64,000 bases of DNA from an uncultured delta proteobacterium (GCA_963842085.1 CAWJET010000002.1:1622507-1686506); one strand, 5' to 3'. Shown: positions 1,734 to 19,040, counted from the stretch's first letter. The notes: a model not told the origin generated them from the letters alone. Program-made: numbers and translations.

Positions 1734-2087
1734 CTATCTCACCCGCGTGGCTCGGGCGCCTCGACTTCTCGGAGCGACGCCCTTCAGTACGTCGTCAATC
1801 CACGTAAGCCCGGCCATCATCCGTGGGAATCCGACCGTGGTCAGGCCCAGAAGTGCGACTTGGCGGATCTCTTCGCGTGTAGCGCCAGCTTCCAATGCAC
1901 GTCGCGCGTGAGAATGGACCGCGCCCTCTTGGGAAGAGGCGACCGCCATACCCAGTTTGATCAACTGAACCAATTTTTCATCGAGTGGGCCATCCTCAGC
2001 AGTCAGTCGCCCGATCGCATCGTAAGCCTGGCTAATCTTTGGGAACTCCTCCTTGAACTGCTGATACCTTCCCGGTAGCTTTTTCAC
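1734..2087 (-). CDS. Carboxymuconolactone decarboxylase (CMD/AhpD-like) family protein
   Basis: LDEKLVQLIKLG...AVHSHARRALEAGATREEI...GFP. Confidence 0.85.
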   Translation of the reverse strand: MKKLPGRYQQFKEEFPKISQAYDAIGRLTAEDGPLDEKLVQLIKLGMAVASSQEGAVHSHARRALEAGATREEIRQVALLGLTTVGFPRMMAGLTWIDDVLKGVAPRSRGARATRVR

Positions 2088-2351
2088 CTTCGAGACACCT
2101 CCAAAGAACCGTTCCTGAAGTCCTTCATCCGCGGCCTAGCCGATGAACGGCAGAGCCAGAATAGGCAAGCGATGCCGACCTCGCGGTCGAAGCGTGCATA
2201 CTACGTGCCACGACTCACGACGTGCAGATAGAGCTTTATCTCCTAAACATGGTGCCGATCGCTCCACTGGCTGCCACTATTAGTGACAGTGTCGGTGCAA
2301 ACAAGAGCCGTTCAACTCGAAAACTCGATTGTCGACGGAAAGTTAATTTCG

Positions 2352-2367
2352 TGGCATGGCCGATGCA
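2352..2367 (+). promoter_or_regulatory. Putative sigma-54 (-24/-12) promoter of the molybdoenzyme operon
   Basis: TGGCATGGCCGATGCA has GG-N10-GC spacing, about 140 bp upstream of the first gene. Confidence 0.5.
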
Positions 2368-2507
2368 TTTATCGCACAGACAATCGGAAGGACCGAGATT
2401 GACGACTAACACGAGCTGAGCCGCACTCCATCTAATCCGAACGAGCGAGCGGCCAAATAACGGCGTGCGAGGCAATTTGTCTTCGCGAAGGACCAAGGGG
2501 TAGTGCA

Positions 2508-3629
2508 ATGAGCCAACGGCAACTTGCGATGGTAATCAATCTCGACAAATGCATCGGGTGTCAGACTTGTACCGTGGCCTGCAGCACCCACCGCCTCAAT
2601 CATCCCGGCACCGAAATGCTCCGCTACATATGGTGCGAAACCAAGCCCGGCGAAGGTTGGCCCAAGGGATGGATGGAGCTGGGGCGCAAGGTTCCGGATC
2701 GCGTGCGAGACTACGGTGGAACCTGGACCTTCAACTGGGAGGAGGTCTATACCTCGCCGGTCGGGACCAAGTACCTGCACCCAATCGTCAAAGAAACCGG
2801 CGAACCGGCGAAGTATGGGCCGATATGGGAAGAAGATCAGGGCGCCGGTGAGTGGCCCAATGGATACTTCTTCTATATGCCCCGGCTCTGCAATCACTGC
2901 ACGGATGCTCCTTGCATAGAAGTCTGTCAAGGCCACTTCGCACGAGGCGGCGGGCTGCCGACCGCCCAAGCGAACGGGCACAAGAACTCGATGCGCAAGC
3001 GCGAATCGGACGGGATCGTCATGATCGATCCGAGTTCGTGCGACGAGTGCGGGCTGTGTGCGGCTGCATGTCCCTACAAAATCCCGATGGAGAACCTGCT
3101 GGCGGGCACCTACGAGATGTGCGACTTCTGCGCGGGCCGGGTGGAAAACCAGTACGCTCCGGTATGTGCGAAGAGCTGCCCCGCGCGCGCGATGTACTTC
3201 GGTTACCTGGACGACAAGGAGAGCTACGTCTCCAAGCTCGTCAACGAATACAAAGTTGCCTTGCCGCTGCGTCCGGACTTCGACACGGGTCCGAATGTCT
3301 ACTACATACCTCCCTTCATCCGGCCAACAACTTTCGCAGCCGACAATAAGCCGACCGGTCAGGCCGATATTCCGACCGATCTGCTTCGTAAGTACTTCGG
3401 ACCGGGCGTTGATCAGGCGATGGCAACGCTCAAGGAGCATCGCGCACGCGCCGAGCGCGGAGAACATTCCGAATTGATGGATCTGCTCATCATTTACAAA
3501 TGGTCGGACGCCTTCGCCCCGTTCAACGTCTTGGCTCCCGTTGAGCCGATCGAACAGGGTGTCGAGGCTAGTAGGGGAAGCCAGCCGATCGAGCAGGGTG
3601 TCGAGGCTAGTAAGGGGCACCGGTCATGA
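2508..3629 (+). CDS. DMSO reductase type II FeS beta subunit (EbdB/NarH-like)
   Basis: QLAMVINLDKCIGCQTCTVAC, YFFYMPRLCNHCTDAPC, CDECGLCAAACP, CDFC...CAKSCP, TGPNVYYIPP. Confidence 0.92.
   Translation: MSQRQLAMVINLDKCIGCQTCTVACSTHRLNHPGTEMLRYIWCETKPGEGWPKGWMELGRKVPDRVRDYGGTWTFNWEEVYTSPVGTKYLHPIVKETGEPAKYGPIWEEDQGAGEWPNGYFFYMPRLCNHCTDAPCIEVCQGHFARGGGLPTAQANGHKNSMRKRESDGIVMIDPSSCDECGLCAAACPYKIPMENLLAGTYEMCDFCAGRVENQYAPVCAKSCPARAMYFGYLDDKESYVSKLVNEYKVALPLRPDFDTGPNVYYIPPFIRPTTFAADNKPTGQADIPTDLLRKYFGPGVDQAMATLKEHRARAERGEHSELMDLLIIYKWSDAFAPFNVLAPVEPIEQGVEASRGSQPIEQGVEASKGHRS
3544..3617 (+). repeat. 39-bp tandem duplication in the beta subunit C-terminus (PIEQGVEAS x2)
   Basis: agccgatcgaRcagggtgtcgaggctagta at 3544 and 3583. 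Confidence 0.9.
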
Positions 3630-6481
3630 GCAAGCAGAAGGGTGAAGAAAATCCTGTGGCTCGGCAAGCAACCGCCGAAGCCCCCGAGAACTACTGGCAG
3701 TGGGATAGGTGCCGATGGGGAACGCATCGCGTCAATTGCTATCCCGGCAGTTGTCCCTTCCGTGTCTATGCCAAGGACGGCCACGTGATTCGCGAGGAAA
3801 TCTCGTGCACCTATCCCGAGTTCACCGACCCCGACTACAAGGTGCCTGACTACAATCCGCGTGGATGCCAGAAAGGCTACCAGCACTCGAAGGCGATGTA
3901 TGGCCCCGATCGGCTGCTATACCCGATGAAGCGCGTAGGCGAGCGGGGCAGCGGTAAGTGGGAGCGAATCAGCTGGGATCAGGCCTGCGATGAAATCGCC
4001 GGCAAGTTTGTCGATATCATCATAAAATATGGGCCGCATGCGATCTCCGACGACCATGGAACCAATGGCGCTGGCGTGTTGCGCGGCGGGGGCGAAGGCG
4101 CCTCGACCGGATTCGTGTCGCGCTTGGGCGGGGTCAGCTACGACCTCAATTTTCTCATCGGCGATTTCAACCCCGGTCAGTACCTGACCTTCGGCCAGTT
4201 TCAGCATGCTCCGGGAATCGAGACCTGGTTCCTGGCCGACACGATCATAGCTCTTTCAAATCCGGCTTATGGGAACATTCCCGACATCCACTATATTCTC
4301 GAGGCGCGCTACCGCGGCGCCAAGGTAGTTGCGATCGCGCCTGACAAGAATGCCACTGCGCAGTTCGCTGACATGTGGCTGCCAGTCAACTGGTCTGCCG
4401 ACCCGGCGTTGTGGCTCGGCGTCTGCAATATCCTGATCGAAAAAGGATGGCTTGATATCGAGTTCATGAAGGAACAGACCGATCTCCCGGTGTTGGTCCG
4501 CATGGACAATCAGCAGTTCCTGCGCGGGTCCGACTTACGCGAGGGCGCGGATATGGAGCAGTTCTATGCAATCGACAGCGCCACCGGCAAGCCCGAGCAA
4601 CTGCCCAAAGGCACGCTTGCGATGCCGTTCGACTATGCGCTTGAGGGCAACTGGAAAGTCACCCTGAAGGACAAGAAGCAGGTCGAGGTCACAACGGTCT
4701 ACGAGCTGCTCAAGAAGCGAGTCGCTGAATACACGCCGGAAAAGGTCCATGAGATCTCCGGGGTCCATCCCGATCAGCTCGCCCAATTGGCCGAACTGGT
4801 CAAGCCACCGCGCAAGGTGTTCGTCTTTGTCAACTGGAACGCCGGCAAGCTTTACCACGGCGATCTTCTCGAGCGCTCTTACTGTTACATGCTCGCGCTC
4901 ACTGGAAACGTCGGCAAGGCTGGCACAGGATCACGAGGATGGTCGGCCGGCGCTGAGTACATCGGCGGCGCCGCGGTCGTTGGCGGGATGCCCAATGAGG
5001 TGCTCGAGACCGGCAACCCGCTGCTTCACGCCATGAATATGTCGCAGAAGATACAGGAGGACTATCGGACGCAGTTCAAAATGGACCCGACGATGCCTCA
5101 GGCCGAGGCTGCTTTGGGTGCGCTCCGCGAAGGTCTCAGAGCGGGCGGCACACTCTCGCCGCCGGTTTGGCTCTGGTACCACCACGCCGGGTACAAGGAG
5201 GTGTGGGACAAGTACCTCGACGACCCGAACGCGCCCAGGAAAATCAGCGAGTACGCGGAGGAAGCGCTTGCCAACGGCTGGCAGAAAGGATTCGTTCCCA
5301 ACAAGGACGTCAGTCCAAAGGGGATGCTGGTATCCGGATCGAATCCGCTCCGCCGTCACCGCGGCGGCATGAACACCTACTTGCAGACTCTGTGGCCAAA
5401 GCTCGAATGCATCGTGGTACTTGATCCGCGCTGGAGCACCACCGGACTTTACGCCGACTACGTTCTGCCTGCCGCATCGTTCTACGAGTATGCCGACTCG
5501 AAGTACTCGACTCCGGCGACGCGCTTCAGCACTTTCACGGATCAGACCGTGCCTATGCTCGGCGAGTCCAGATCAGACCGCCAGATCACGCTCGCCCTGC
5601 TCAAACGCATCCAGGAGCAGTTCCTGAAGAGAGGCGTGGAAAAGTACAAGTCAGGTGACCGCGAGATCGTGGTCAAGGATCTCTACTGGCGCGCCACCTT
5701 TGGCGGACGCTACGGCGAAACTAACGAAGACGAGGAGGTGTTGGTAAACGACACCTTTAACGCGCTTGGACAGATGGGTTGGTTCGAGAGTCTCGACGGT
5801 GAGGAACTCACGATCGACAACCTGCGCAAGAACGGGAAAGCCTGGCTTACCGGCCGCCCCGCCTGGCACGCTACCGTGGTCCAGAACTCGGACATGGTTT
5901 CAGGCAGTATTTTCTGGCCCTTCCGCGATCAGCTCGAGCAAAAGGTGCCATACGCAACTACGACGCGGCGCATGGAGCTATACCTCGATCATCCGTGGTT
6001 CATCGAGGCCGATGAACATCTTGTTCGCTACAAGCAGCCGCCCAACATCGGCGGCGCCCAGGGCTTGCGGCTTACCAGCGGACACCTGAGATGGAGCATT
6101 CACTCTAACTGGGTAGTGTCCTACGAGATGCTGAAGCTGCATCGCGGCGAGCCATTTGCTTTCATCAACGAAACCGTCGCGAAGAAAAAAGGCATCGCGG
6201 ATCATGACTACATCCGCGTTTACAATGACTACGGCTCCTTCATAACCAGGGCGAAGCTCAGTTCCTGCACGCGGCCTGACCAGCTAGTGATCTACCACGC
6301 GTGGGAACCGTATCAGTATCCGAATTGGATGCCGTACGACGGCTTGCTGCCAGGCCCACCCAAGGGCCTGCACTTCGCGGGCGGCTATCGCCATTTCGAA
6401 TACACGCTGTGGAACTGGTCTCCTTCGCAGTCGGATCGGCAGACCAATATCGACTTCGAAAAGGCCGAACTTCAGAACTAG
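3626..6481 (+). CDS. Molybdopterin oxidoreductase alpha subunit 1 (type II, ethylbenzene/steroid C25 dehydrogenase-like)
   Basis: FS0 motif THRVNCYPGSC...PRGCQKG; Asp-ligand segment LIGDFNPGQYLTFG; AGKLYHGDLLERS; HLRWSIHS. Confidence 0.92.
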   Translation: MSKQKGEENPVARQATAEAPENYWQWDRCRWGTHRVNCYPGSCPFRVYAKDGHVIREEISCTYPEFTDPDYKVPDYNPRGCQKGYQHSKAMYGPDRLLYPMKRVGERGSGKWERISWDQACDEIAGKFVDIIIKYGPHAISDDHGTNGAGVLRGGGEGASTGFVSRLGGVSYDLNFLIGDFNPGQYLTFGQFQHAPGIETWFLADTIIALSNPAYGNIPDIHYILEARYRGAKVVAIAPDKNATAQFADMWLPVNWSADPALWLGVCNILIEKGWLDIEFMKEQTDLPVLVRMDNQQFLRGSDLREGADMEQFYAIDSATGKPEQLPKGTLAMPFDYALEGNWKVTLKDKKQVEVTTVYELLKKRVAEYTPEKVHEISGVHPDQLAQLAELVKPPRKVFVFVNWNAGKLYHGDLLERSYCYMLALTGNVGKAGTGSRGWSAGAEYIGGAAVVGGMPNEVLETGNPLLHAMNMSQKIQEDYRTQFKMDPTMPQAEAALGALREGLRAGGTLSPPVWLWYHHAGYKEVWDKYLDDPNAPRKISEYAEEALANGWQKGFVPNKDVSPKGMLVSGSNPLRRHRGGMNTYLQTLWPKLECIVVLDPRWSTTGLYADYVLPAASFYEYADSKYSTPATRFSTFTDQTVPMLGESRSDRQITLALLKRIQEQFLKRGVEKYKSGDREIVVKDLYWRATFGGRYGETNEDEEVLVNDTFNALGQMGWFESLDGEELTIDNLRKNGKAWLTGRPAWHATVVQNSDMVSGSIFWPFRDQLEQKVPYATTTRRMELYLDHPWFIEADEHLVRYKQPPNIGGAQGLRLTSGHLRWSIHSNWVVSYEMLKLHRGEPFAFINETVAKKKGIADHDYIRVYNDYGSFITRAKLSSCTRPDQLVIYHAWEPYQYPNWMPYDGLLPGPPKGLHFAGGYRHFEYTLWNWSPSQSDRQTNIDFEKAELQN

Positions 6482-6499
6482 CGCCGGGAGGGCGGAAAA

Positions 6500-9355
6500 A
6501 TGGCAACCCAAGTGGACACGTCCGCCGTGCATCCCTCGCGACGAAACTCTGTGCAGGAGCAGCGCCAATATTTTGAATGGGATAGCTGCAAGTGGGGTAC
6601 CCATCGGGTGAACTGCTACCCGGGAAGTTGCCCCTTCCGGGTCTACGTCAAGGACGAGAAGGTGGTGCGCGAAGAAATCTCGTGTACCTATCCGGAGTTC
6701 AACGATCCCGAGTCTAAGGTGCCCGACTACAATCCGCGCGGATGCCAGAAGGGCTATCAGCATTCGCGTGCGATGTACGGGCCGGACAGGATATTGCATC
6801 CGATGAAGCGCGCGGGCGAGCGCGGCAGCGGAAAATGGGAACAGATTTCCTGGGAGCAGGCTTTCGAAGAAATCGGCGAGAAGATCGCTAATGTTATCCA
6901 GAAGTACGGACCCAAGGCGCTGGTTGACGACCACGCCGCCAACGGCATCGGAGTGTTTCGCGGCGCCGCCGAGGGCTCGACCACCGGCATGACTTCGTTA
7001 CTCGGTGGAGTGAGCTTCGATCTCGACTTCGTGACCGGAGACTTCAAGGTCGGCCAGTGGCTGACTTTTGGGGAGATGCATCACGCGCCAGGCATCGAGA
7101 ACTGGTTCCTACCGGATACCATCATCCTGATGTCCAACCCGGTCTATGCGAACATTCCGGACGTCCATTACCTCCTGGAAGCCCGGTATCGCGGCGCCAA
7201 GATAATCGCCGTCGCACCGGACAAGAATCCTTCCGCCCAGTTCGCCGACATCTGGGTACCCATCGACTGGTCGGCGGATCCTGCGCTGTGGCTCGGGGTG
7301 GCAAAGATTCTGATCGACAACGGATGGATCGACACGGAGTTCGTCAAGGAACAGACCGATGCGCCAATCCTGGTTCGATCGGATGATGGCCGGTTCTTAA
7401 GAGACTCCGACTTGCGCGAGGTCGGAGACCCCGAGCAGTTCTATGCGATCGACAGCGCGAACGCGCAGCTGGTGCAGATGCCCAAGGGCACGCTTGAAAT
7501 GGCCGCCGACTATGCTCTCGACACGCGCACCGGTGTGCTCCTGAAAGACGGCACTAAGGTCGAGGTCCGAACCGTTTTCAATCTGCTCAAGGAGCGTCTG
7601 CTCGAGTACACGCCGGAGAAGGTCCACCAGATGTCGGGGGTTCACCCGGACATGCTCCACCAGATCGCCGATCTCTGCCGGCCGCCCCGGAAGATTTTCG
7701 GCTATATCAACTTCATTACCGGCAAGCTCTATCACGGCGATCTGCTCGAGCGCTCCTATTGCTACATCCTTGCGCTGACCGGGAACGTCGGCAAACCGGG
7801 TACCGGCACCCAGGGCTGGTCGCCGGGAACGGAGATCTCGGCCTCGATGGCGGCGGTCGCCGGGATGCCCAAGCAGGTGATCGAATCGGAGAACCCGATC
7901 GCCGCGGCCGCGACCTTGTCCCAGCTGATGATGGAGGATTACAAGACGCGCCTTAAGATGGACCCCACGATGCCGCCGGTCGAGGCCGCTAACGGCGCGA
8001 CGCATGAGGGCCTCAAGTCGTCGGGCACGCTCACGCCCGGGGTTTTTCTCTGGTATCGCCACGCCGGATACAAGGAAGTCTGGGACAAGCATCTGCACGA
8101 TCCATATACCGACAAGAAGATCAGTGACTACGCCGAAGACGCAGTCGCCAGGGGCTGGTGGGACGGATTCGACCAGAAAGTCACGCCGCGCGCCATGTTC
8201 GTATCAGGATCGAATCCGCTGCGCCGTCATCGCGGCGGCATGAATACCTATATAAAGACCCTATGGCCGAAGCTCGAAACGATCGTCGTATTCGATCCGC
8301 GCTGGAGCACGACCGGTCTTTATGCGGACTATGTATTGCCGTCCGCGTCCTACTACGAATATGCGGACGTTAAGTATTCGACCCCCGACACACGGCTGCT
8401 ATGCTTCACCGATCAGTCGGTGCAGCCGCTTGGCGAAAGCAGGTCGGATCGCCAGATTGCCCTCGGCGTGTTGAGCAGCATCGCGAAGCACCTGAAGGCC
8501 CGCGGCATCGAAAAGTACAAGGCGGGCGAAAACCGTGAGGTCATCGTCGACGACCTGTACTGGCGCGCGACCTACGGCAACCGCTATGGCGAGACCAACG
8601 CGGACGAAGAGCGCATGGTCGATGACTGCCTCCATGCTCTTGGCGAACTGGGATGGCTCAGCAGCCTGGACGGTGAAGACGTTAACCTCGACAACATGCG
8701 CAAGAACGGCAAAGCCTGGCTGAGCGGGCGCCCGCCCTGGCACGGTATGGTATGCCAGAGCTCGGATATGGTCCCGCGCCAGGTCCATGTGCCGATGAGA
8801 GACCAGGTCGAAATGAAGGTCCCCTACGCGACTACCACGCGGCGCATCGAGCTCTACATCGATCACCCGTACTTCGTCGAGGCGGACGAGGCTTTGGTGC
8901 GGCATAAGCGGCCGCCCGATATTGGCGGTCACCAGCCGCTGAGAATCACCGGTGGTCATGTCCGATGGAGCATTCACGCCAATTGGCATACTTCGCTCGA
9001 AATGATGAAGCTGCATCGGGGCGAGCCGTTCGCGTTCATCAATAATACTGCCGCGCGCAAAAAGGGCATCGAGGACCATGACTTCATTCGTGTATACAAC
9101 GACTACGGCGCATTTCTGGTGAGAGCGAAGCTGTCCGCCTGCGTGCGGCCGGATCAGTTGGTTATCTACCATGCCTGGGAGCCGTATCAGCATCCCAACG
9201 GCATGCCCGCCGACGGCCTGATGCCCGGCCCGCCCAAGGGGCTTCACTTTGCCGGCGGCTATCGGCATTTTGAGTACACGTTGTTTAGCTGGGCGCCGTC
9301 GCAGAACGACAGGCAGACCAATATCGACTACGAGAAGGCCGAGTTTCAAGGATAG
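6500..9355 (+). CDS. Molybdopterin oxidoreductase alpha subunit 2 (tandem paralog)
   Basis: Same motifs (THRVNCYPGSC, VTGDFKVGQWLTFG, TGKLYHGDLLERS); 951 aa and collinear with alpha 1. Confidence 0.92.
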   Translation: MATQVDTSAVHPSRRNSVQEQRQYFEWDSCKWGTHRVNCYPGSCPFRVYVKDEKVVREEISCTYPEFNDPESKVPDYNPRGCQKGYQHSRAMYGPDRILHPMKRAGERGSGKWEQISWEQAFEEIGEKIANVIQKYGPKALVDDHAANGIGVFRGAAEGSTTGMTSLLGGVSFDLDFVTGDFKVGQWLTFGEMHHAPGIENWFLPDTIILMSNPVYANIPDVHYLLEARYRGAKIIAVAPDKNPSAQFADIWVPIDWSADPALWLGVAKILIDNGWIDTEFVKEQTDAPILVRSDDGRFLRDSDLREVGDPEQFYAIDSANAQLVQMPKGTLEMAADYALDTRTGVLLKDGTKVEVRTVFNLLKERLLEYTPEKVHQMSGVHPDMLHQIADLCRPPRKIFGYINFITGKLYHGDLLERSYCYILALTGNVGKPGTGTQGWSPGTEISASMAAVAGMPKQVIESENPIAAAATLSQLMMEDYKTRLKMDPTMPPVEAANGATHEGLKSSGTLTPGVFLWYRHAGYKEVWDKHLHDPYTDKKISDYAEDAVARGWWDGFDQKVTPRAMFVSGSNPLRRHRGGMNTYIKTLWPKLETIVVFDPRWSTTGLYADYVLPSASYYEYADVKYSTPDTRLLCFTDQSVQPLGESRSDRQIALGVLSSIAKHLKARGIEKYKAGENREVIVDDLYWRATYGNRYGETNADEERMVDDCLHALGELGWLSSLDGEDVNLDNMRKNGKAWLSGRPPWHGMVCQSSDMVPRQVHVPMRDQVEMKVPYATTTRRIELYIDHPYFVEADEALVRHKRPPDIGGHQPLRITGGHVRWSIHANWHTSLEMMKLHRGEPFAFINNTAARKKGIEDHDFIRVYNDYGAFLVRAKLSACVRPDQLVIYHAWEPYQHPNGMPADGLMPGPPKGLHFAGGYRHFEYTLFSWAPSQNDRQTNIDYEKAEFQG

Positions 9356-9357
9356 TC

Positions 9358-10578
9358 ATGTCCAAGGTCGGCGGGGCGTTGCCATCCTGGTACTGGCCGG
9401 TGGGCGTGCCGCGTCGTGTTCCGGTAGCACAGCAGCCGCTCGGCCGAGTGTTCCGTCAGAAGTTTTTGGCGGCGAAAGATCGCCCGGCAGTCGTATCTGA
9501 GAATTCTCGACTCAGTTATGCCGAACTGCTCGAGCAGAGTCTCACTCTCGCCGGCGGAATCCAGGCCGCGGGCCTCGAGAGCACGGTTGCGATTGCCGAT
9601 CCCGATCCGGTCCAGAGCCTGCTGCTCTGCATAGCTGGATTGCTCGCGGGTCGGTGCGTCTTTCTGGCAGACCCAGCTGACTCCGCGGAGCGACTCGTGG
9701 CTCGGCTCGCTGAGGCAAAGGCTTCGGCGCTCATCACGTCCGACGGCGCCGCAGTTGCGCAGGGTGGCGACGTCAGGATCGTCAAGAAAAGCGAGCTCAA
9801 GGGCACCTTCAGCGACGCAGCAACGGCGAAGCGAGCCACCGAGCCCGCGCTACTTATTCCCAGTGGCCGCGGGGTGGTCGCTCACTCGCATTTTTCAGCG
9901 TCTGCGATGGCTGCCTCGATGGCGGCTTTCATTCCCAAGTTGCGCGAGATTTCCTTCCTGTGCACCGAACCAGCGATAGGCTCGTGGGAAGTGCTTACCG
10001 GTATACTGCTTGCACTTTCGCAGGGCCGGCCAATTGCATTTGGCCGCGTCGAGGAGTTTGACTCCGGTGAGCTCGCTGAGTTTGCCGGCAATGGCTACCT
10101 GATTATTCGGCAAGGTCAGGCCGACAAAATGCTGATCGACGGGTGGGCACCGAAGCTGATTGGCCGGGCGGCCTATGTCTTCGTTTCGACCGGGTTCTTC
10201 ACGCCACGTTGGCGGCGGCGACTGGAATCCTTATACGACCGGCCTATATTTCCGCTTTGGGGCTTGCCCGAGCTCGGTCCCCTGGTCGCGTCTCATCCGA
10301 CCTGGCTTCCGCCGCATGGCCACGGGTTCCCGCTCGTCAACGTGTCGCTGATTCCGATCGATCCGGGAAGCGGCAAGGTTTCGATCGTGCCCTGGGAGAT
10401 GCTCGACGAGGCGGAAGTCGGCGTCGAGGCGCTCTCGGCGATGGTGGGCTACGTGGAAACTGCGCGCAACGTTGGGATCAAGTCCGGCACGGCTGTGAGG
10501 ACGCGGCAGGTCGCGAGCATGGATCATGTCGGCGTGGTTGCTCTGCAGGCAGACCGGAGAGCGGCCAATGCCAACTGA
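9358..10578 (+). CDS. Degenerate AMP-binding (acyl-CoA synthetase-like) protein
   Basis: DRPAVV...LSYAEL, WGLPE, GFPLVNV; P-loop eroded (PSGRGVVAHSH); C-terminal domain missing. Confidence 0.7.
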   Translation: MSKVGGALPSWYWPVGVPRRVPVAQQPLGRVFRQKFLAAKDRPAVVSENSRLSYAELLEQSLTLAGGIQAAGLESTVAIADPDPVQSLLLCIAGLLAGRCVFLADPADSAERLVARLAEAKASALITSDGAAVAQGGDVRIVKKSELKGTFSDAATAKRATEPALLIPSGRGVVAHSHFSASAMAASMAAFIPKLREISFLCTEPAIGSWEVLTGILLALSQGRPIAFGRVEEFDSGELAEFAGNGYLIIRQGQADKMLIDGWAPKLIGRAAYVFVSTGFFTPRWRRRLESLYDRPIFPLWGLPELGPLVASHPTWLPPHGHGFPLVNVSLIPIDPGSGKVSIVPWEMLDEAEVGVEALSAMVGYVETARNVGIKSGTAVRTRQVASMDHVGVVALQADRRAANAN

Positions 10579-11260
10579 GAGCGCCAATCTCTTCTTCGAC
10601 GTTCCCGGTGGGAGTCTTTCATTCGGAAACGGCGACCTGGATGTCTGGGCGGAACACCTAACCTGGTGTTACCGGATGATGGGCATCGCGGACGGCGCAA
10701 CGATCGCGGCTCAAGACTTCGGCAGCAGTCCCATTTCGTTTCTCGGCTCAAGTCTGCTGATGCCGGGGCTGCGGCGCGGAGTTGCCGAACGCATTGACGG
10801 ACGCTTCATTTGCCTTGATGCCTCGGCCGAGCGGGTCACGCTCACTCCCGCCCTGCTCGCACAACTCAAGGTTGATGCGCTGGTAGTCAGGGACGACATC
10901 GTCGAACTGTTGGTAGCCGAGTTGCGCAACAAGGGCTCCGCCGACCTCGCCAGGCAAGCGATGAAAACAATCGTGGTGTTTGGCGAAGATCCGCCCGCGC
11001 TCAACCCGGCTGGCACGCAGCCGTGGCGCCATCTCATGCACGTCGAGGGGGCGCTGCTGCTCGCACCCGAATGCGCACAGTGCGGATGCTTCCATCTGCG
11101 CGGCGGATTTTACGAAGTTGAGGGCGCTACGATTCGAAACCTTAAACTCGCCGTGCCGCCCTACGGCTTGTCGCTTGGTGAACTGATACCGGCGGGGCGC
11201 TGCGCTGCCGGGCCTGACGACTGGGGTATCCAGTTGCCGATTCGCCGCAGAGGCGTCTGA
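10568..11260 (+). CDS. Hypothetical protein, distantly PaaK-like N-terminal fold
   Basis: Coupled to both neighbours; DLDVWAEHLTWCYRMMGI and ECAQCGCFHL resemble PaaK segments. Confidence 0.55.
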   Translation: MPTESANLFFDVPGGSLSFGNGDLDVWAEHLTWCYRMMGIADGATIAAQDFGSSPISFLGSSLLMPGLRRGVAERIDGRFICLDASAERVTLTPALLAQLKVDALVVRDDIVELLVAELRNKGSADLARQAMKTIVVFGEDPPALNPAGTQPWRHLMHVEGALLLAPECAQCGCFHLRGGFYEVEGATIRNLKLAVPPYGLSLGELIPAGRCAAGPDDWGIQLPIRRRGV

Positions 11261-11265
11261 TCCTT

Positions 11266-12555
11266 ATGGGTGCTAACTCGACATACCCGCAACGCGACGA
11301 AGTCGAGGCGCTCTCCGCGGCGCGATTGACCGCTTGGCAGACCGACCGCTTGCGTGAAGTGGCAGACCACGCGTACCGACACGTTCCGTTCTACCGGGAT
11401 CTCTGGGCAGGCGCGGGTATCGGCCCAGACGCGCTTCGCTCTCTTGAGGACCTCGAGCGTTTTCCGATAGTCACGAAGCGGGATCTGGTACAAGCCGGTG
11501 ACCGCTGGGTAAATCCGCGTCAGGGCCGGGTCGCATTCAGCACTCGCGGTACTTCCGGGGATCCGCTGCTCGTTTGGCTGAGCGCAGAGGAGGAAGAGGC
11601 GTACATCCTGCCCACGATGCGTGGTTTTCGATGGGCCGGATTCGGCCCGGGAATGACGGCGTTGTTGATGAGTCCGGTCTGGCACCGACTCGCGGCGTGC
11701 GAGGCGCACGCGGTTGCGCGTTTGGGCGGGAGTTGCGCGTTCTTCTGGGGCAGCATGGGCCCGGAGTACCTTGAGTCGTTCTTGCGCGCGCTGTCCTCGG
11801 CACGACCCGAATTCGTCACCACCACCGCGCCGTTCCTCCTCTCCCTGATTCGACGCGGCACGGGCTCAAGGATCCCCTCGAACGAGATCTTGAGTGGGGT
11901 ACGTTCGATTTCTGTAGTCGGCTTGCCGCTCACGCCGCGGATGCGCGAGTTCCTGCGCGACCGTTTGGGAGTTGGAGACGTCTTCGAGCGCAGTGGGACG
12001 CAGGAGGGAGCCGCCCTCGATGAATGCCAAGCGCACACCGCTCCGCACGTGCACGAGGATGTCTGTTATCTCGAGGTCCTGGACGATGCTGGCGCTCCGG
12101 TCGCATCCGGTGTTCGCGGCCGGCTGATCGTCACCAAGCTAAGTTCTGCGGGCAGCATCTTCGTCCGCTATGACACTGGCGACATCGCAGCGTTCGCGCC
12201 GGGCCCGTGCCCCTGCGGCTCGGAATTTCGACGGCTGAAGATTTTTGGCCGCCCTGAGAGCAGTGTCTTGGTCGGCAGCCAGCGAATCACCGCCTACGAT
12301 GTCCGCATGTGTATCGAGGATAACGCTGACTTGGTCGGGCGAAACGTCTTGTTGATTCGCGAAGCGGATTCATCGGCCGGCGTCCTCACGGTCGCCGTCG
12401 AGGGCAGCGCCCACGATCAGGCGCAATTGAACGCGCGGCTCCGCGAGCGATTGGGGGTCAACGCGGTCCGTATGGTCTGGCTCGGCGACCTCAAGCTCAA
12501 TTGGGGCTTCCGACAAGTGCTCGACAGTAGCGAGATTCCGATCCCAAGGAGTTGA
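11266..12555 (+). CDS. Phenylacetate-CoA ligase / coenzyme F390 synthetase-like adenylate-forming enzyme
   Basis: HVPFYRDL, LERFPIVTKRDL, STRGTSGDP, VHEDVCYLEVLD, RYDTGD, CPCG. Confidence 0.88.
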   Translation: MGANSTYPQRDEVEALSAARLTAWQTDRLREVADHAYRHVPFYRDLWAGAGIGPDALRSLEDLERFPIVTKRDLVQAGDRWVNPRQGRVAFSTRGTSGDPLLVWLSAEEEEAYILPTMRGFRWAGFGPGMTALLMSPVWHRLAACEAHAVARLGGSCAFFWGSMGPEYLESFLRALSSARPEFVTTTAPFLLSLIRRGTGSRIPSNEILSGVRSISVVGLPLTPRMREFLRDRLGVGDVFERSGTQEGAALDECQAHTAPHVHEDVCYLEVLDDAGAPVASGVRGRLIVTKLSSAGSIFVRYDTGDIAAFAPGPCPCGSEFRRLKIFGRPESSVLVGSQRITAYDVRMCIEDNADLVGRNVLLIREADSSAGVLTVAVEGSAHDQAQLNARLRERLGVNAVRMVWLGDLKLNWGFRQVLDSSEIPIPRS

Positions 12556-12566
12556 TGGAGGCGCCA

Positions 12567-13670
12567 ATGAAGCTGATGCTGCCAACCAACTTTGATCCCG
12601 AACTCATCGCTCGAATCGCCCCGTTCAAGCCCGATTACATTTACGGAAGCCTGCCGAGCGAGGCTACGCTTCGCTCGTCACTGATGCTTTCCAACGCGAG
12701 CGAAGACGATATAGCACTTCATGTTTCACAAGCTGCGCAGCACGGAATTCGTCTCGTTTACGTCATGAATGCCACCTGTCTGGGGAACAAGGAATTCTCC
12801 GACGAAGGCCGCGGCCAGATGCTGCAGCGTCTCCAGTGGCTTGTCGATATCGGGGCGGCGGCGGTTGTCACGGCGAATCCGTTCGTGATGGAGCTAGTGC
12901 GCGAGAATTTTCCCGAGCTCGAACTGCACATCTCCGTCCTCGCCTCGGTCAATGATGCCCGCAAGGCGAAATTCTTCGACGACCTCGGCGCCGCGGTGAT
13001 CCACCTCGATCCTCAGGTTAATCGCGACTTCTGCCGCCTCAAGGCCATCCGCAAGGCGGTCGGGTGCCGTCTGTCGCTTGTCGTGAACGAGGGATGCCTG
13101 CTGAGCTGTCCGATCCGCCAGTATCACTCCAACATGATCTCCCATTCGGGAGAAAGTATCACGCAGCGATACTACGTGGACTACTGCTACTACCGCTGCT
13201 CGCTTATCAAGGCGAACGACGCCACCGAGTATGTCCGTTCACCATGGGTCAGGCCCGAGGACGTGGCAATCTACGAAGACTTGGGGATCGACCTCTTCAA
13301 GATTGCCGGCCGCGAAAAGATGGAAGAGGGGCCGAGTTCGCACACCGATTGGATCGCTATGGTCGCGAACGCGTACCACTCGAGGCACTGCGAGGATGTC
13401 GCCCGCCTCCTCGTCGGCATCCAGCCGCCTTATAAGCTTTTCGGCGGCGAGCCCGAGCCGTTGAGCGTCCGAATCGACAGTGCGGAGTTGGATGGCTTCC
13501 TGCGCTTCTTCGAGGACGACCATTGCATGCTCGATTGCAACCAGTGTGACTACTGCGGGAATTGGGCGCGGCGTGCCGTCCACGTGAGCGGCAGGCCGCT
13601 GGAATGCGCACAGGCGCTCGCTAATGACCTGCAGACCATTCGGGTCGGAAGTTATCGGAGTGGCAGATGA
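12567..13670 (+). CDS. U32 family Fe-S protein (UbiU/UbiV/RlhA/TrhP superfamily)
   Basis: YVMNATCLGN, LHISVLASV, VNEGCLLSCP, YCYYRC, WVRPED, FKIAGRE, C-terminal CMLDCNQCDYC. Confidence 0.85.
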   Translation: MKLMLPTNFDPELIARIAPFKPDYIYGSLPSEATLRSSLMLSNASEDDIALHVSQAAQHGIRLVYVMNATCLGNKEFSDEGRGQMLQRLQWLVDIGAAAVVTANPFVMELVRENFPELELHISVLASVNDARKAKFFDDLGAAVIHLDPQVNRDFCRLKAIRKAVGCRLSLVVNEGCLLSCPIRQYHSNMISHSGESITQRYYVDYCYYRCSLIKANDATEYVRSPWVRPEDVAIYEDLGIDLFKIAGREKMEEGPSSHTDWIAMVANAYHSRHCEDVARLLVGIQPPYKLFGGEPEPLSVRIDSAELDGFLRFFEDDHCMLDCNQCDYCGNWARRAVHVSGRPLECAQALANDLQTIRVGSYRSGR

Positions 13671-14197
13671 AGGCTCTCGATCTGCAGATCATTGTTTCGA
13701 TGCATATTCTTTTTGCGGCTGTGTTTGTCGGCTCCAATGTGTTTCTGGATTTCCTTTTGACCCGGCGTCTCGATCTGATTCCGCCCGGCCAAGCGGCGCG
13801 GCTCGGCGACAAGCTCGGGACCGACTTCGCTATCTTGAACTGGATCACCCTGCTGGGACTCCCGCTGAGCGGACTCCTGCAGCTGTGGCGATTGGGCCAG
13901 TTGTCGTCGTTTCTCGACCCCTCGTTCTTCGTCAGCGGTTACGGTGCCGCCCTGTTGACGATGATCACGATCTGGCTCAGCCTGGTAATAACCGCCGCAA
14001 TCTTGACCTTCTATCTGCGCCCGCGCGTCGTGGTGAAACTTCCTTACGATGCCACGCGTCAGCAGGTTGAGGGCTCTCGTACCGAAGCCGTGCGGTATGC
14101 GAACTGGATGCGGCGTCTCGCGCGCTACAACGTAATCTCGTCGATGGTCGCGTTAGTCATTGGCGGGTTTCTGCGCTTCGGAGGGTTTCCATTCTGA
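13667..14197 (+). CDS. Four-TM membrane protein (CopD/DUF4149-like)
   Basis: MHILFAAVFVGS start, four hydrophobic segments, overlapping start/stop coupling. Confidence 0.7.
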   Translation: MKALDLQIIVSMHILFAAVFVGSNVFLDFLLTRRLDLIPPGQAARLGDKLGTDFAILNWITLLGLPLSGLLQLWRLGQLSSFLDPSFFVSGYGAALLTMITIWLSLVITAAILTFYLRPRVVVKLPYDATRQQVEGSRTEAVRYANWMRRLARYNVISSMVALVIGGFLRFGGFPF

Positions 14198-14198
14198 G

Positions 14199-15221
14199 AT
14201 GGCAACTTCGCTGACAGAAAGTGCATCTGCGCAGAACGAGGCGCGCAGGCTCGGCGACCGCTTCGGACGGACGATGAAAAGGTTGCGCGTCTCTCTGACC
14301 GATCGATGTAACTTTCGCTGTGTCTATTGCATGCCCGAATGCCCGGTCTGGGTCGCGAAGGAAGAGCTCCTGAGCTTTGAGGAACTCCGTGAGTTGGTGG
14401 AAATATTCGTGACTCGTCTCGGAATCGAGCAGCTACGCTTGACTGGCGGCGAGCCGCTCCTGCGCAGCGGCGCCGCTCGATTTGTCACGATGCTATCCGA
14501 GCTCCGGTGCGAGGGCCTTCGCCGCGTATCGCTATCCACCAACGGCGTACTCCTGGCGCGCTACGCAGGCGAACTCGCCGACGCAGGGCTCGACGACGTC
14601 AACGTCAGCCTCGATTCGCTCTCGCCCGAGCGATTTCGCCAAATCACTGGCGGCGGCAACCTGCGCGATGTCCTGCATGGAATCGATCGCGCTCGCGAAG
14701 TCGGTCTGCCGGTCAAAATTAATGCCGTCGTAATGCGCGGTACCAACGATGCCGACGTTCTGCCGCTTGCCCGCTGGGCATATCGCGAGAAACTTCCTCT
14801 GCGCTTCATCGAGTTCATGCCGCTCGACAGCCGCGGCTTGTGGAATCGAGACAGGGTCTTCACCGAGCGGGACCTGATCTCACTTTTGAGCCGCGAGTTC
14901 GAGGTCACGCCGATGGCGCGCACCAGCGAACCGGCGAGTTACTATTTTCTGAACGGCTCTTTCCGCCTCGGCGTCATTTCGACGATTTCCAACCCATTCT
15001 GTGGCCTCTGCGACCGCGTCCGGCTCACTTCGGATGGGAAACTGTTCGCCTGCTTGTTCTCTCCGGCAGGCGTCGATCTCAAGCAAGGAGTGCGCGCCAA
15101 GCTCGATAACGACCATCTAGAGTCGCGGATTCGTGCCTCGGTCTTCAACAAGCCGCGCGGATTCGTCGAGAAATCCGCACTGGTTAACGGACATGCAAGC
15201 ATGCACGTCCTCGGAGGATAA
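14199..15221 (+). CDS. moaA: GTP 3',8-cyclase (molybdenum cofactor biosynthesis)
   Basis: LRVSLTDRCNFRCVYC, TGGEPLLR, RFIEFMP, FCGLCDRVRL, C-terminal GG. Confidence 0.95.
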   Translation: MATSLTESASAQNEARRLGDRFGRTMKRLRVSLTDRCNFRCVYCMPECPVWVAKEELLSFEELRELVEIFVTRLGIEQLRLTGGEPLLRSGAARFVTMLSELRCEGLRRVSLSTNGVLLARYAGELADAGLDDVNVSLDSLSPERFRQITGGGNLRDVLHGIDRAREVGLPVKINAVVMRGTNDADVLPLARWAYREKLPLRFIEFMPLDSRGLWNRDRVFTERDLISLLSREFEVTPMARTSEPASYYFLNGSFRLGVISTISNPFCGLCDRVRLTSDGKLFACLFSPAGVDLKQGVRAKLDNDHLESRIRASVFNKPRGFVEKSALVNGHASMHVLGG

Positions 15222-15226
15222 TCGAT

Positions 15227-16519
15227 ATGTATCGACAAAAAGTGTCGCGGCTGACTCTGATCGCTTCCGCGGCGCTGCTGGCGCAAATCGCAGCCATCAA
15301 ATTCGCCGCCGCCCAGGTCCGCCCGGGCGAACTCATAACTGCGCAAGACGCGCGCAAGGTCGAGCAACTGGTCTCGCCCGGCGTCTATCTCAGGGTAACC
15401 CACGGGATGAGCATGCAGATTGCGCCGAGCGAACGGATCGAGTGGCCCCCTCCCTACCGCGAGGCCACCGAGAAATATTCCGCGCAGGTCAGGCTCTCGC
15501 GCGACCATCGCAGTCTCGTGGGATACGTCGCGGGCCTGCCGTTTCCATTCATCGACCCCAATGACGCCGACGCTGGAAACAAAGTCATGTGGAACAACAC
15601 CTTTCGTCCCACTTCCACCGACGATTACGACGCGCGCGATTTCTCCTGCATCAGCGAGTACGAAGGGCTGAATCGGAAATATGCGCCGATTGACTACTAC
15701 GAGATGGGTCACTTGGCCAGCTACAACCTCGTCGGCCGAACCGAAGTCGAGCCGCTGCCGACCGATCCCGATTTCCGTACCAGCGGGCGGCTACTGCTGA
15801 TGGCCTTCTACCCGATGCTGGCGCCGGAAACCGAGCGCGGCCGGGGCTTCATAAGATATCGCTACGCCGATCCGGCCGAGGGCGACGACACCTGGAGCTG
15901 GAATCCCGGCAATCGAAGGATCCGCAGATACAGCGAAGCGACGCTCGGCTCCGCCGCTGGTCCGATTACCTGGTCGCTGGACAATTTCCAGGGATTTGCC
16001 GCCAAGAACGAAAATTACAATTGGCGCTTCCTTGGCGAGAAACCCATGCTCGCCTCGATCGCCGCCGGTCATGTGCCTGAAGTCACCTGCCCAACTGACG
16101 GCGGCGCCAGCGCCTGTCCCGAGCGTTGGGAATTGCGCCGAACTTATGTTGTCGAGGGTGTAGCTCGACGCGATCGAGTCCCACAGGAGTTGTTCGGACG
16201 CCACGTCATGTACATCGACGCTGAAGCGCAATGCATCGTGTACCAGGATCTATACGACCGTGGCGGCGAGCTCTGGAAGAACTACATAAGCTGGATGGCT
16301 TATCGCGATCGCTCCGTACCCGCTGCGCGCGTCGCCATTTACCCATTCAGACGAGTCTTTCAGGTAGGCGCCAGCATTGATGATCTCAAGGACGGATTCG
16401 CGACCATGTGCTATTTGCCCGCGCAGGACACTGCTGAGCACGAATGCTGGTATATAAACATGGGCGCCGTAGACAAGAGCTTTTTCACCGTTCAGGCACT
16501 CACTGCGGCCGCGCCCTGA
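15227..16519 (+). CDS. DUF1329 family exported protein
   Basis: Signal peptide; EATEKYS, GYVAGLPFP, RRIRR, WELRRTYVVEG, YDRGGELWK. Confidence 0.85.
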   Translation: MYRQKVSRLTLIASAALLAQIAAIKFAAAQVRPGELITAQDARKVEQLVSPGVYLRVTHGMSMQIAPSERIEWPPPYREATEKYSAQVRLSRDHRSLVGYVAGLPFPFIDPNDADAGNKVMWNNTFRPTSTDDYDARDFSCISEYEGLNRKYAPIDYYEMGHLASYNLVGRTEVEPLPTDPDFRTSGRLLLMAFYPMLAPETERGRGFIRYRYADPAEGDDTWSWNPGNRRIRRYSEATLGSAAGPITWSLDNFQGFAAKNENYNWRFLGEKPMLASIAAGHVPEVTCPTDGGASACPERWELRRTYVVEGVARRDRVPQELFGRHVMYIDAEAQCIVYQDLYDRGGELWKNYISWMAYRDRSVPAARVAIYPFRRVFQVGASIDDLKDGFATMCYLPAQDTAEHECWYINMGAVDKSFFTVQALTAAAP

Positions 16520-16562
16520 AGCGAGGACTTTGAGTGGCACAAAAGAGACAGGAGAAAAGACA

Positions 16563-17780
16563 ATGACCTATTCACATCTTGCGACTCCTTCGATCAAGTT
16601 GCTCGACCGCGCTGTCGGCGGGCATCGCCTCTCCGCCGATGAGATCCTGCGCCTTTACGAACTCCCCTCGCACGAGTTGGCTGTCGCAGCGCATGCAGTT
16701 CGGCAGCGCCGCACCGACCCAGAGGTGGCTACCTATTCGATTGGTGGCAATATCGACTACACCAACGTATGCGTGGTCGCGTGCAGATTCTGCGCATTTT
16801 ATCGCGCCAGGCACCAGGACGGAGCCTTCACGCTTAGCTTCGACGAGATCGCGCGCCAGATGGACGGGATCAGGCAAATCGGCGGTCTCGACGTTCTGAT
16901 CCAGGGCGGTGTGAATCCAGATTTGCCATTCACCTGGTATCTCGATCTGATGCGGTTTCTGAAATCCGACTATCCCGAGATCCACGTCGACGGATTCAGT
17001 CCGGAGGAGATTCTCGGACTGGAAAAACTTACCGGGCGCGATGCGCTGGATGTTCTCTCCGATCTCAAGGAGGCAGGCCTCGATGGAATGCCCGGCGCGT
17101 CGGCCGAGATCCTGGTGGACGAAGTGCGCGAGCGCTCCGCGCCAACCCGGATGAAAAGTGGCGATTGGTTCAGAATCATCGACGCAGCCATGAAGCTTGG
17201 GCTGCACAACCCGTGGGTGGCGATGGTCACAGGTTTCGGCGAAACGCTGTCGCAGCGCGTCGAGCACTTGATCGCGCTGCGCGACCAGCAGGATCGCGGA
17301 TTGGAATATTACGGCTGCGGCTTTTCGGCTTACAAGGTGTGGCCGGCACGTCTCGAACACACCCGCCTGCGCGGCCAGGCCGCCCAAGCTGCCGAGAAAG
17401 CGATCGTCAAGGACTATCTGCGTAACGTCGCGGTCGCGCGCCTTGCTCTGGACAACATTCAGAACCATCGTACCGTTTGGCGAACGATGGGATTCCCGGT
17501 GGCGACGCAAGCACTGCGCTCGGGAGCCAACGACGTCTGCGGCACCGGCTCGATCAACGCGATCAATGCTTGCATCGAGGCGGCCGGAAAGGATCTACCC
17601 GACCTAACCCAGGCGTTGATTCGCCAGGTTTGCGAATGCATCGAAAATGCCGGCGTCACCGCGGCGCTACGCGATCCTTACTACAATATTATTTTCCGCC
17701 CTGGCTTGGGGAACCCATATGCCGCTCATGGACCCAATCCTCCGCCCGCAGGTATGCCCTCATGCCCGCGGCAGCCATGA
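16563..17780 (+). CDS. Radical SAM protein, MqnC/MqnE/CofH family, divergent
   Basis: [48 protein letters not shown]. Confidence 0.88.
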
Positions 17781-19040
17781 TCCGTAGGGGCTCCGGCGGC
17801 CAAGGGATAACGCGGCGGTTAACGAACGGACAATCGAGCAGCTCGCTTTTGCGTCTCAGAAGCAGATCGCGCAGAACCTGCGCGTTCAGATGCGTTAGCG
17901 AAACCCCGTGGCCAATACAGCCGACGCTGTAAACCGCGCGCTCGTCTCGCAAATAGCCGAGTGCCGGCGCCAGATCCAACGTGACCGAGAACGGCCCACC
18001 CCATCGATGAGTGATACGGACGCCTCTCAACGAAGGAAAGAGGAAGCCGAGGTGCTCCTCGAGATGACGCCACGCGGCTTGATTGCTATCCGCGTCGAGA
18101 CTGTTCCGGTAGGTCAGCCCGACCGGGCCGCCGCCCATCACCAGGCGGTTATCCGGCGTGCGGCGGTAATAATGAATCAGGTTGCGCGCGTCCTCTACCC
18201 CCTCGAAACCCTTCCAGCCGATCGGCCCCAACTGCGCGGGCGTCAGAGGCTCGGTCGCGATCATGTAGGTGAAGGCGGGAATCTGCTTGCGCCTTAGTTG
18301 CGGGAAGAGATGCGAGTAGGCGTTGGTTGCGAATACCAACTTCTGCGCGCTGACGGTTCCGTCCGGCGTCTTCAGCCGGAAGATGGGCTGCGATGTGATC
18401 TCCGTTACCGGCGTGTTCTCATACACCGATACGCCGAGCTTCAGCGCCAGCCGCTTTTCCTCCCGAACCAGCTTGGCCGGATTGACCAGCAGCAGGCGTG
18501 GCTCCCACATCGCACCGATATAACGCGGTGAGTTGACTCGGCCCTGACCGCCTCCGCGTCGATCCAGTCGATCCCGCCGAAACCCAGCGACTTCATCAAC
18601 TCCACTTCGTGATGGAGCCGGGCGACGTAGGCCGGCGCCGTCGCCACCCTCAAAAAGCCGGGACGAATCCGGTCGCAGTCCAGCTTCTCCCGCTGGATAA
18701 GATCGTCCAGCGTGTCCACCGCCCGCTCCATAAAGGCGTGCGCTTCCTTTAGGAACTGCTTTCCGCGAATCATCGCGGTCGTCCCGAAGCCAAGCCCGAC
18801 CACCGTCATCGCGAACGAACCATTCCTGCCACTCGCGCCGTGCCCGATCGTGCGGGCCTCCAGCACCGCGACTTTCAGCGCAGCATCGGCGCGTCTCAGT
18901 TCGCAGGCCGTCGCAATCCCGGTAAAGCCGCCGCCGATCACCGCGACATCGACCGCGATATCGCCCCTGAGCGAAGGCTCGGGCGTATACGGCCCGTAGG
19001 CATCGAGCCACAGCGACAAAGGTGAATCGGGTAATCGCAT
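17689..19040 (-). pseudogene. FAD-dependent oxidoreductase (PuuB/DAO family), 1-nt frameshift near 18540
   Basis: [11 protein letters not shown] and GASGRNG in one frame; ATNAYS, HRWGG, GCIGHGV in the next frame; may be an assembly error. Confidence 0.85.

Follow-up and report, generated by a model that had tools for sequence, protein, structure and literature searches.

Which compartment does an anaerobic hydroxylase work in when its genes carry neither an export signal nor the subunits that usually accompany one? The catalytic alpha subunits EbdA, CmdA and S25dA are listed as periplasmic in a 2023 superfamily survey (PMC10100899), and ethylbenzene dehydrogenase (EBDH) is described as a soluble periplasmic enzyme of three subunits (PMC8840923). 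The question is raised by a locus at positions 2508-9355 of a 64-kb stretch of DNA assigned to an uncultured delta proteobacterium (GCA_963842085.1, CAWJET010000002.1:1622507-1686506; 64,000 nucleotides, hereafter the window), which encodes one iron-sulphur beta subunit and two alpha subunits of this kind. Our analysis favours a cytoplasmic, Asp-ligated enzyme of the type II dimethyl sulfoxide (DMSO) reductase family, from the branch of EBDH and steroid C-25 dehydrogenase (S25DH), in which one beta would serve two specialised alphas; we regard this architecture as probable, though by no great measure, and hold any assignment of substrates with much lower confidence. The best database matches of the alphas are named Candidatus Binatus, the nearest locus being 94% identical, and by these matches the host is a Binataceae-type soil bacterium (Binatia).

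The genes form a tightly packed string on the + strand that starts at 2508 with beta (2508-3629, 373 residues) and continues with alpha1 (3626-6481), alpha2 (6500-9355) and a series of accessory genes. The beta stop overlaps the alpha1 start (ATGA), alpha1 and alpha2 lie 18 nucleotides apart in one reading frame, most stops and starts overlap in the genes after alpha2, and both alpha starts are preceded by a purine-rich stretch resembling a Shine-Dalgarno sequence. Each alpha is 951 residues long, and the two are 68% identical over 940 residues. A preliminary description of 3626-9355 had reported two tandem alphas with no Tat (twin-arginine translocation) signal and no gamma or delta gene, and had proposed either a cytoplasmic enzyme with interchangeable catalytic subunits or two sequential steps sharing one beta. 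Its observation is confirmed and its interpretation partly supported; the order of the genes is beta-alpha-alpha, not alpha-beta, and the description missed both the upstream place of beta and the conserved accessory genes downstream.

Neither alpha has an N-terminal region of the kind that directs Tat export. An in-frame stop four codons 5' of the alpha1 start (3611), and the stop of alpha1 itself (6479), which lies in frame six codons 5' of the alpha2 start, exclude a longer N-terminus for both proteins, and an upstream start yielding a Tat peptide was ruled out on this ground. Neither N-terminus contains a pair of arginines (RR) with a hydrophobic region, or any hydrophobic stretch, and no signal peptide was found on beta. 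The His of the FS0 iron-sulphur motif is residue 34/35, so that about 33 residues precede it and not some 25 as first stated. The SRRNSV that had been called vestigial is present in alpha2. In the alpha2 orthologues two basic residues in the pattern R/K-R-D/N are retained some 20 positions ahead of FS0 (near residue 14 in alpha2 itself); the alpha1 orthologues retain A-R-Q-A. These may or may not be remnants of a Tat motif, such as NarG, the catalytic subunit of nitrate reductase, carries.

The same lack extends to the relatives of these proteins. Using a simple rule, we found no Tat-like N-terminus in 30 of the 31 alphas fetched with their loci that belong to the same clade (defined below), the single positive being a borderline score within an upstream read-through of locus L018. 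By eye, an RR motif with a hydrophobic region was seen in none of 64 database relatives of at least 61% identity (P0006-P0069). Outside the clade, the 51 alphas comprised 31 Tat-positive by the rule, three more by eye, 11 Tat-less and six without the anchor motif. Tat absence is, on these alignments, a property of the lineage and not a peculiarity of this locus. The alphas are very probably not exported by the Tat system, and the cytoplasmic location that had been proposed gains support from the lack of an upstream start, from the Tat-less clade and from a beta that has no signal either.

Genes for the gamma and delta subunits are equally missing. Pfam models for EB_dh (PF09459), Nitrate_red_del (PF02613) and NarI-type proteins had no match among the scanned open reading frames (ORFs) of at least 90 residues in the window. 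We also built hidden Markov models (HMMs) from nine gamma and five delta proteins that Pfam recognised beside more distant relatives, and ran them on six-frame ORFs of at least 50 residues from the window and from 62 loci, each holding relatives' genes with 10 kb on either side. They matched nothing in the window and nothing in the 21 loci of the clade (L001-L021). The same models matched 29 gamma and 21 delta ORFs elsewhere, all of them in L022-L060 beside relatives 33-42% identical, and Pfam confirmed these control loci; the absence is therefore no problem of sensitivity, and the statement that no gamma or delta gene is present stands for the window and the 21 related loci. A protein of the operon designated unk244 was considered as a NarJ/TorD-like chaperone and ruled out, its predicted fold being of the PaaK-family alpha/beta type.

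Trees of the alphas (FastTree on 82 sequences, with IQ-TREE quick searches on subsets giving the same picture) unite the Tat-less, gamma-less alphas in a single clade. Its support is 100%, and its stem is long, at 0.6-0.9 changes per column. Sequences from Actinomycetota and from a Sterolibacterium metagenome-assembled genome (MAG) stand at its base, those from Binatia lie inside it, and database names extend it to Terriglobales. With NarG of Thermus and Haloferax and ClrA of Alicycliphilus as roots, the clade nests within lineages that bear Tat signals and gamma and delta genes, so that the loss of the export signal, of gamma and of delta is most simply read as derived. Its sister group (98% support) consists of sequences from Desulfobacterales, Dehalococcoidia and Acidimicrobiaceae, 38-42% identical, whose EBDH-like operons (L022-L049) retain gamma, delta and mostly the Tat signal, those of Acidimicrobiaceae sharing two of the accessory genes, for a CopD-like and an AMPn protein, with the operon described here. 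A tblastn search of plasmids did not find EbdA; all that it gave, at identities no higher than 34.8%, was ClrA, NarG and some haloarchaeal relatives without a name, and these served as outgroups. Chlorate reductase (ClrABDC, Alicycliphilus pALIDE01) is likewise a type II alpha/beta enzyme, with ClrA about 30% identical to alpha1, but it has a Tat signal, an annotated gamma (ClrC) and a chaperone (ClrD), and branches outside the EBDH-like radiation.

Two further sequences were noted during this survey. The Binatia MAG of L062 holds, at 4158-12709, a distant Tat-bearing alpha (38% identical) after MMPL, DUF1302 and DUF1329 genes, and beta, gamma and delta were not detected within the 15.3 kb of that locus. 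One clade alpha of 842 residues (P0071) is recorded with an N-terminal domain of the HypC/HupF type (PF01455, hydrogenase assembly chaperone), a fusion that could be an artefact of gene calling or a hint of another maturation helper.

Both alphas match the Pfam domains Molybdopterin (PF00384) and Molydop_binding (PF01568) above cut-off, and their best NCBIfam model is that of the type II DMSO reductase alpha subfamily, TIGR03479 (alpha1 764.7 and alpha2 714.1 bits; cut-off 984.75). The EbdA equivalog NF042978 scores 585.5 and 575.5 bits (cut-off 2000) and the narG equivalog 202.6 and 177.6 bits (cut-off 1084), neither cut-off being reached. EbdA is also the best solved relative (2ivf_A, E-value 1.5e-168 over residues 22-947), at 566 bits against 356 for the perchlorate reductase subunit PcrA and 179 for NarG. 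The beta protein scores 313.3 bits on TIGR03478 (cut-off 480.7) and 289 bits on the EbdB model, below its curated cut-off as well; it matches Pfam Fer4_11, and its four Cys groups (FS1-FS4) are invariant in 11 orthologues. Its C-terminus (window 3543-3620) holds a 13-residue duplication, with PIEQGVEAS[RK]G appearing twice where the orthologue consensus has a single copy; Tandem Repeats Finder made no call there.

The cofactor-binding residues are fully retained. In an alignment of 18 clade members the FS0 ligands H34, C38, C43 and C81, the molybdenum ligand D180, K408 and the stretch Y410-D413 are all invariant, so the FS0 His/Cys motif, the ligand Asp and the K-x-YHGD motif had been correctly recognised in both alphas. 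Counted by hand on the HMMER alignment to EbdA, D180 corresponds to D223 of that protein and K408 to K450, the Y410-D413 stretch together with K408 matching EbdA K450-D455. The differences quoted around the predicted active site are also present as given (DDHGTNGAG in alpha1, DDHAANGIG in alpha2; LNFLIGDFNPG and LDFVTGDFKVG, respectively). At the position of EbdA His192, alpha1 has Thr146 and alpha2 Ala146. As set out in a review (PMC6153880), the Lys keeps the Asp ligand monodentate, and S25DH, unlike EBDH, lacks the active-site His; in this residue both alphas are thus nearer to S25DH than to EBDH. By analogy with these two enzymes the likely reaction is C-H hydroxylation with water, and we infer hydroxylase rather than reductase chemistry from the sequences. 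Relative to EBDH of Aromatoleum aromaticum (EbdABC(D), 2IVF), whose genes are ordered alpha-beta-gamma-delta, the system shares the FS0 motif, Asp ligand and Lys-x-YHGD of the alphas and a beta with Cys groups for four clusters; it differs in that Tat, gamma and delta were not found locally, beta comes first, there are two alphas and His192 has given way to Thr or Ala.

How far have the two alphas diverged? At the DNA level they are 69.5% identical. The differences are distributed evenly over the genes, and identical runs do not exceed 18 nucleotides, which indicates an old duplication without recent gene conversion. Their orthologues fall into two groups (10 rows for alpha1, 11 for alpha2), each monophyletic with 99-100% support in the Shimodaira-Hasegawa-like approximate likelihood-ratio test (SH-aLRT), and identity is 79-94% within groups as against 68% between paralogues. 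Among 551 columns conserved in both groups, 501 are identical and 50 group-specific, and 14 of these 50 sites fall in residues 146-216, a region that spans D180 and the EbdA His192 position (hypergeometric p of about 6e-5, for a region picked after the data had been seen). Further group-specific sites, at positions 400 and 404, flank K408. Separate orthologue groups, together with substitutions enriched near the ligand Asp, argue for an old specialisation; the divergence fits different substrates or steps and does not fit plain redundancy, and "interchangeable" is not a word that these subunits bear out.

A shared beta is suggested by the way the genes are grouped. Beta is followed by one alpha in L008, by two in L001-L004, L007, L011 and L014 and by three in L005 and L006, and alpha1 and alpha2 occur together in nine of the 11 loci in which beta precedes clade alphas, the exceptions being L008, with its single alpha, and L020, where two alphas are present and not in tandem. 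Orphan clade alphas occur amid unrelated genes in L009, L012, L015, L016, L018 and L021. A precedent comes from Sterolibacterium denitrificans, for which PMC6016249 reports eight alpha paralogues, with alpha1 to alpha4 of that organism active together with its beta3/gamma3 and the chaperone SdhD. Taken together, these arrangements support the proposal that a single beta serves both alphas, as we infer by analogy. The steroid hydroxylases S25DH1-4 and S26DH1 of Sterolibacterium resemble the present system in having many alpha paralogues, several per beta/gamma, and no active-site His, and the JGI label on several clade members is "steroid C-25 hydroxylase alpha subunit"; they differ in their Tat signals, their haem-b gamma and their need for SdhD, none of which is present at this locus.

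Individual loci show variants of the arrangement. L005 (12703-18597) has alpha1 and two copies of alpha2 in tandem, and L006 (9914-18611) combines alpha1 and alpha2 with a divergent alpha of a third type. The Sterolibacterium MAG (L020), which holds two clade alphas, has a 2-oxoacid:ferredoxin oxidoreductase pair (1766-4709) directly 5' of its beta-alpha genes and its second clade alpha on the opposite strand.

In the mechanism that we propose, one iron-sulphur beta would be made together with two specialised alphas, and separate alpha1-beta and alpha2-beta enzymes probably form. Each alpha is expected to bind a molybdenum bis(pyranopterin guanine dinucleotide) cofactor, with Asp180 as ligand and Lys408 holding the Asp, in addition to the FS0 cluster, and each pair would use water to hydroxylate a C-H bond, the reaction taking place at a Mo=O centre with Asp as ligand. 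From FS0, electrons would pass through the four beta clusters to an acceptor on the membrane side, for which the CopD-like protein of the operon and the convergent cytochrome b and c genes at 17689-23611 are candidates. The lineage would descend from Tat-exported alpha-beta-gamma ancestors, having lost the signal peptide, the haem-b gamma and the NarJ-type chaperone, and the enzyme would act inside the cell beside cytoplasmic partners encoded in the same operon. Alpha1-beta and alpha2-beta may serve different substrates or successive steps. Ligase-like, DUF1329 and thiolase/HGD-type neighbours hint at a substrate that is hydrophobic, or activated as a carboxylate or coenzyme A (CoA) ester.

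The genes downstream of alpha2 are part of the same conserved arrangement. First comes AMPn (9358-10578, + strand, as are all genes to 17780), a protein of 406 residues resembling the N-domain of adenylate-forming enzymes, with a Pfam AMP-binding match confined to residues 38-134; an alignment of 15 sequences shows an invariant N-terminal PSWYWP, a degenerate P-loop and no C-domain, and the family is small (100 database proteins, none characterised). It is followed by unk244 (10526-11260; the probable start at 10568 gives 230 residues), an Atlas lead kept in 11 loci that belongs to no Pfam family; its predicted structure (predicted local distance difference test, pLDDT, 82.7) is a shortened PaaK fold matching EhpF, PaaK1 and BT_0428 with E-values down to 4e-7 and query TM-scores (TMq) of 0.56-0.69. 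A PaaK-like adenylate-forming ligase of 429 residues (11266-12555) is kept in 12 loci, with NCBIfam scores of 114 bits for the DVU_1553 family, 105 for FlxY and 95 for PaaK, all below cut-off; BLASTP among the three ligase-like proteins found no similarity. The U32-family protein (12552-13670, 372 residues; Pfam Peptidase_U32, 53 bits) has weak matches to TrhP and UbiU and is kept in 12 loci, including that of a Gammaproteobacteria MAG (L019).

Next in the string is a CopD-like four-helix membrane protein of 176 residues (13667-14197), identified by hydropathy, by an Atlas result, by a Pfam CopD score of 28.6 bits (cut-off 32.1) and by a structural model that shows four long helices (pLDDT 85). 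An alignment of 13 sequences keeps His13 in helix 1, PPxQA and TFxLRPR without exception, and the homologue in L034 reaches 34.9 bits on the CopD model. Compared with the PDB, the model, a generic four-helix bundle, had no match at E of 0.001 or below among the 324 matches listed, and a complex prediction for beta with the CopD-like protein gave a score of 0.00 and no verdict. HemJ, a distant relation of CopD, has four helices and, in the first of them, a His that serves as haem ligand. HemJ/PgdH2 is described in PMC13564367 as a membrane-associated b-type haemoprotein, and by this analogy a role of the CopD-like protein with haem or quinone is a reasonable guess. The string ends with MoaA (14160-15221), the GTP 3',8-cyclase of molybdenum cofactor (Moco) synthesis (TIGR02666, 345 bits, exceeding the cut-off of 284); a DUF1329/LolA-like protein (15227-16519; Pfam, 150 bits) whose N-terminal hydrophobic segment marks a signal peptide and which is kept in seven loci; and an MqnC/CofH-like radical SAM protein (16530-17780; TIGR03699, 324 bits, below the cut-off of 428) found also in L001 and L010.

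This accessory order recurs in the Binatia loci L001-L008, L010, L014 and L017. In 13 loci the sequence 3' of the last alpha can be seen, and in 12 of these, all but L011, AMPn comes directly next; the Gammaproteobacteria locus has the order alpha, AMPn, PaaK-like, U32. By this conservation of order, the accessory genes are linked to Tat-less alphas across phyla. DUF1329 is accompanied by DUF1302 or MMPL in L062 and L008. Genes of the 2-hydroxyglutaryl-CoA-dehydratase type (HGD-D), a BcrAD-type ATPase and a thiolase adjoin clade alphas in L008 (4353-8590, 20652-21974) and L018 (16746-17963), which suggests CoA-ester metabolism close by. The Acidimicrobiaceae loci L034, L049 and L056 show an intermediate arrangement, in which gamma- and delta-like genes occur with CopD-like, AMPn and three alphas.

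Convergent with the operon, on the - strand at 17689-23611, Pfam identifies a cluster of a DAO-type flavoprotein, two c-type cytochromes, a cytochrome b of 429 residues and a lipoprotein-like ORF of 437 residues. In six Desulfobacterales-type loci, Tat-type operons of the order alpha-gamma-beta-delta have a cytochrome b gene behind them, and the cytochrome b of the window shares 46-49% identity with these; L011 has the two cytochrome c genes too. The cluster is a possible electron outlet of the enzyme. An Rfam scan of the whole window returned no family and hence no Moco riboswitch, promoter and terminator scans gave matches at chance level, and neither tandem repeats (Tandem Repeats Finder) nor tRNAs were found. 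Further along, 25534-53471 and 55535-60243 are rich in genes of insertion sequences, namely rve, IS110, DDE_3 and incomplete copies; two large serine recombinases with DUF2924 proteins are also encoded there, and G+C content falls to 0.53 near 50-52 kb.

Other explanations of the locus deserve consideration, and the one that survives best is a special case of our own, opposed to parallel substrates: alpha1 and alpha2 would hydroxylate one substrate in succession, and the adenylate-forming-like proteins would contribute an ATP-dependent step in between. In Sterolibacterium, according to PMC7411048, S25DH and S26DH act in turn, with an ATP-dependent dehydration in the cytoplasm between two periplasmic steps, so that intermediates change compartment. 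Here both alphas would already be cytoplasmic, three folds of ATP-utilising type follow them, and the pair is retained in most loci with a beta. Yet the complete accessory set of L008 goes with one alpha, L005 and L006 carry three, the P-loop of AMPn is degenerate and unk244 is shortened, and nothing resembling the kinase or the lyase of Sterolibacterium was seen. We consider such a cascade unlikely, though it deserves to be kept in view. A more elaborate version, and a somewhat less likely one, is a cytoplasmic module for the oxygen-independent oxidation of unactivated carbon, in which two successive hydroxylations of the S25DH and S26DH kind would be combined with ATP-dependent or activating steps by AMPn, unk244, the PaaK-type ligase and the U32 protein, the CopD-like protein with its invariant His would replace gamma as a haem or quinone outlet, and AMPn or another protein of the operon would insert the cofactor.

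Doubtful, and slightly more so than this module, is a cytoplasmic membrane-bound reductase of the Nar type, in which the quinone pool would supply electrons for reducing an oxyanion or another oxidised compound and the CopD-like protein would be the membrane anchor. Like NarGHJI, the system belongs to the Asp-ligated family, and its catalytic dimer would be cytoplasmic and lack a working Tat signal; NarG is the sole characterised member of the family listed as cytoplasmic in the table of the survey (PMC10100899). The operon holds a small membrane protein and moaA, and the basic pair of the alpha2 orthologues resembles the remnant Tat motif of NarG. But NarG is much larger and far less similar than EbdA (179 against 566 bits with solved structures, 203 against 585 with family models), and in the rooted tree the clade falls within the EBDH-like radiation and NarG and ClrA stand apart from it. 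Neither of the proteins that NarG requires, NarJ and NarI, had a match among the window ORFs, and the neighbours are ligase-like, U32 and DUF1329 proteins rather than nitrate/nitrite transporters.

Improbable, in turn, is an enzyme that is still periplasmic, with alpha-beta-gamma composition, whose gamma, delta and Tat-bearing carrier are encoded elsewhere and whose alphas are exported as passengers. The window offers a partial view of the genome, the Binatia MAG of L062 has a distant Tat-bearing alpha, and in Dehalococcoidia/Chloroflexota (L024, L025, L030, L042) a Tat-less alpha, gamma, beta and a Tat-bearing alpha stand in one gene string, so Tat-less alphas can occur with partners of the periplasmic type. 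Beta, however, has no signal, gamma and delta are missing from the window and all 21 clade loci alike, Tat loss is uniform in a clade of several phyla, and the co-transcribed partners (MoaA, radical SAM protein, ligases) are typical of the cytoplasm. We give as little credence to redundant, interchangeable isoenzymes doing the same job and kept for dosage or regulation. In favour of these, both alphas keep all cofactor ligands and most of the conserved columns agree, but the duplication is older than the split of the sampled Binataceae, the group-specific changes cluster by the ligand Asp and K408, and there has been no gene conversion.

The cytoplasmic enzyme with one beta and two specialised alphas is itself subject to several reservations. 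Neither the alphas nor beta reach the cut-offs of their subfamily models, and the sole ground for placing the alphas in the cytoplasm is the missing signal. A gamma, a delta or a Tat-bearing partner could lie beyond the window or beyond the 10 kb on either side of the related genes. The trees come from quick searches with no mixture model and contain long branches, and the long stem of the clade could signal an altered reaction. In Acidimicrobiaceae the order beta, alpha, CopD-like, AMPn, alpha, alpha stands alongside gamma- and delta-like genes; the CopD-like protein and AMPn are therefore no simple replacements for gamma and delta. No beta was found within 10 kb of the orphan alphas, whether in Actinomycetota (L015, L016) or in Binatia, so an alpha might act with another partner. 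The enrichment of group-specific sites at residues 146-216 carries the bias of a region chosen after the fact, and the whole proposal is known from sequence alone.

The clade and its operon are nonetheless real, conserved and uncharacterised, all that is known of them being their sequences; in the literature we covered, which comprised neither subscription-only papers nor bioRxiv supplements, we found no published description of a Tat-less, gamma-less clade or operon of the EBDH type. The characterised hydroxylases are hard to produce because, according to PMC6016249, they need gamma and a private chaperone. If our reading is true, a widespread lineage of soil and peat appears to perform this chemistry in the cytoplasm and to dispense with both of them, which would add Binatia, Actinomycetota and Acidobacteriota to the known range of anaerobic C-H activation and would offer a simpler, two-subunit scaffold for biocatalysis. 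It would also raise the questions of how Moco is inserted without NarJ and how electrons leave without haem b, to which the accessory genes of the operon would be candidate answers.

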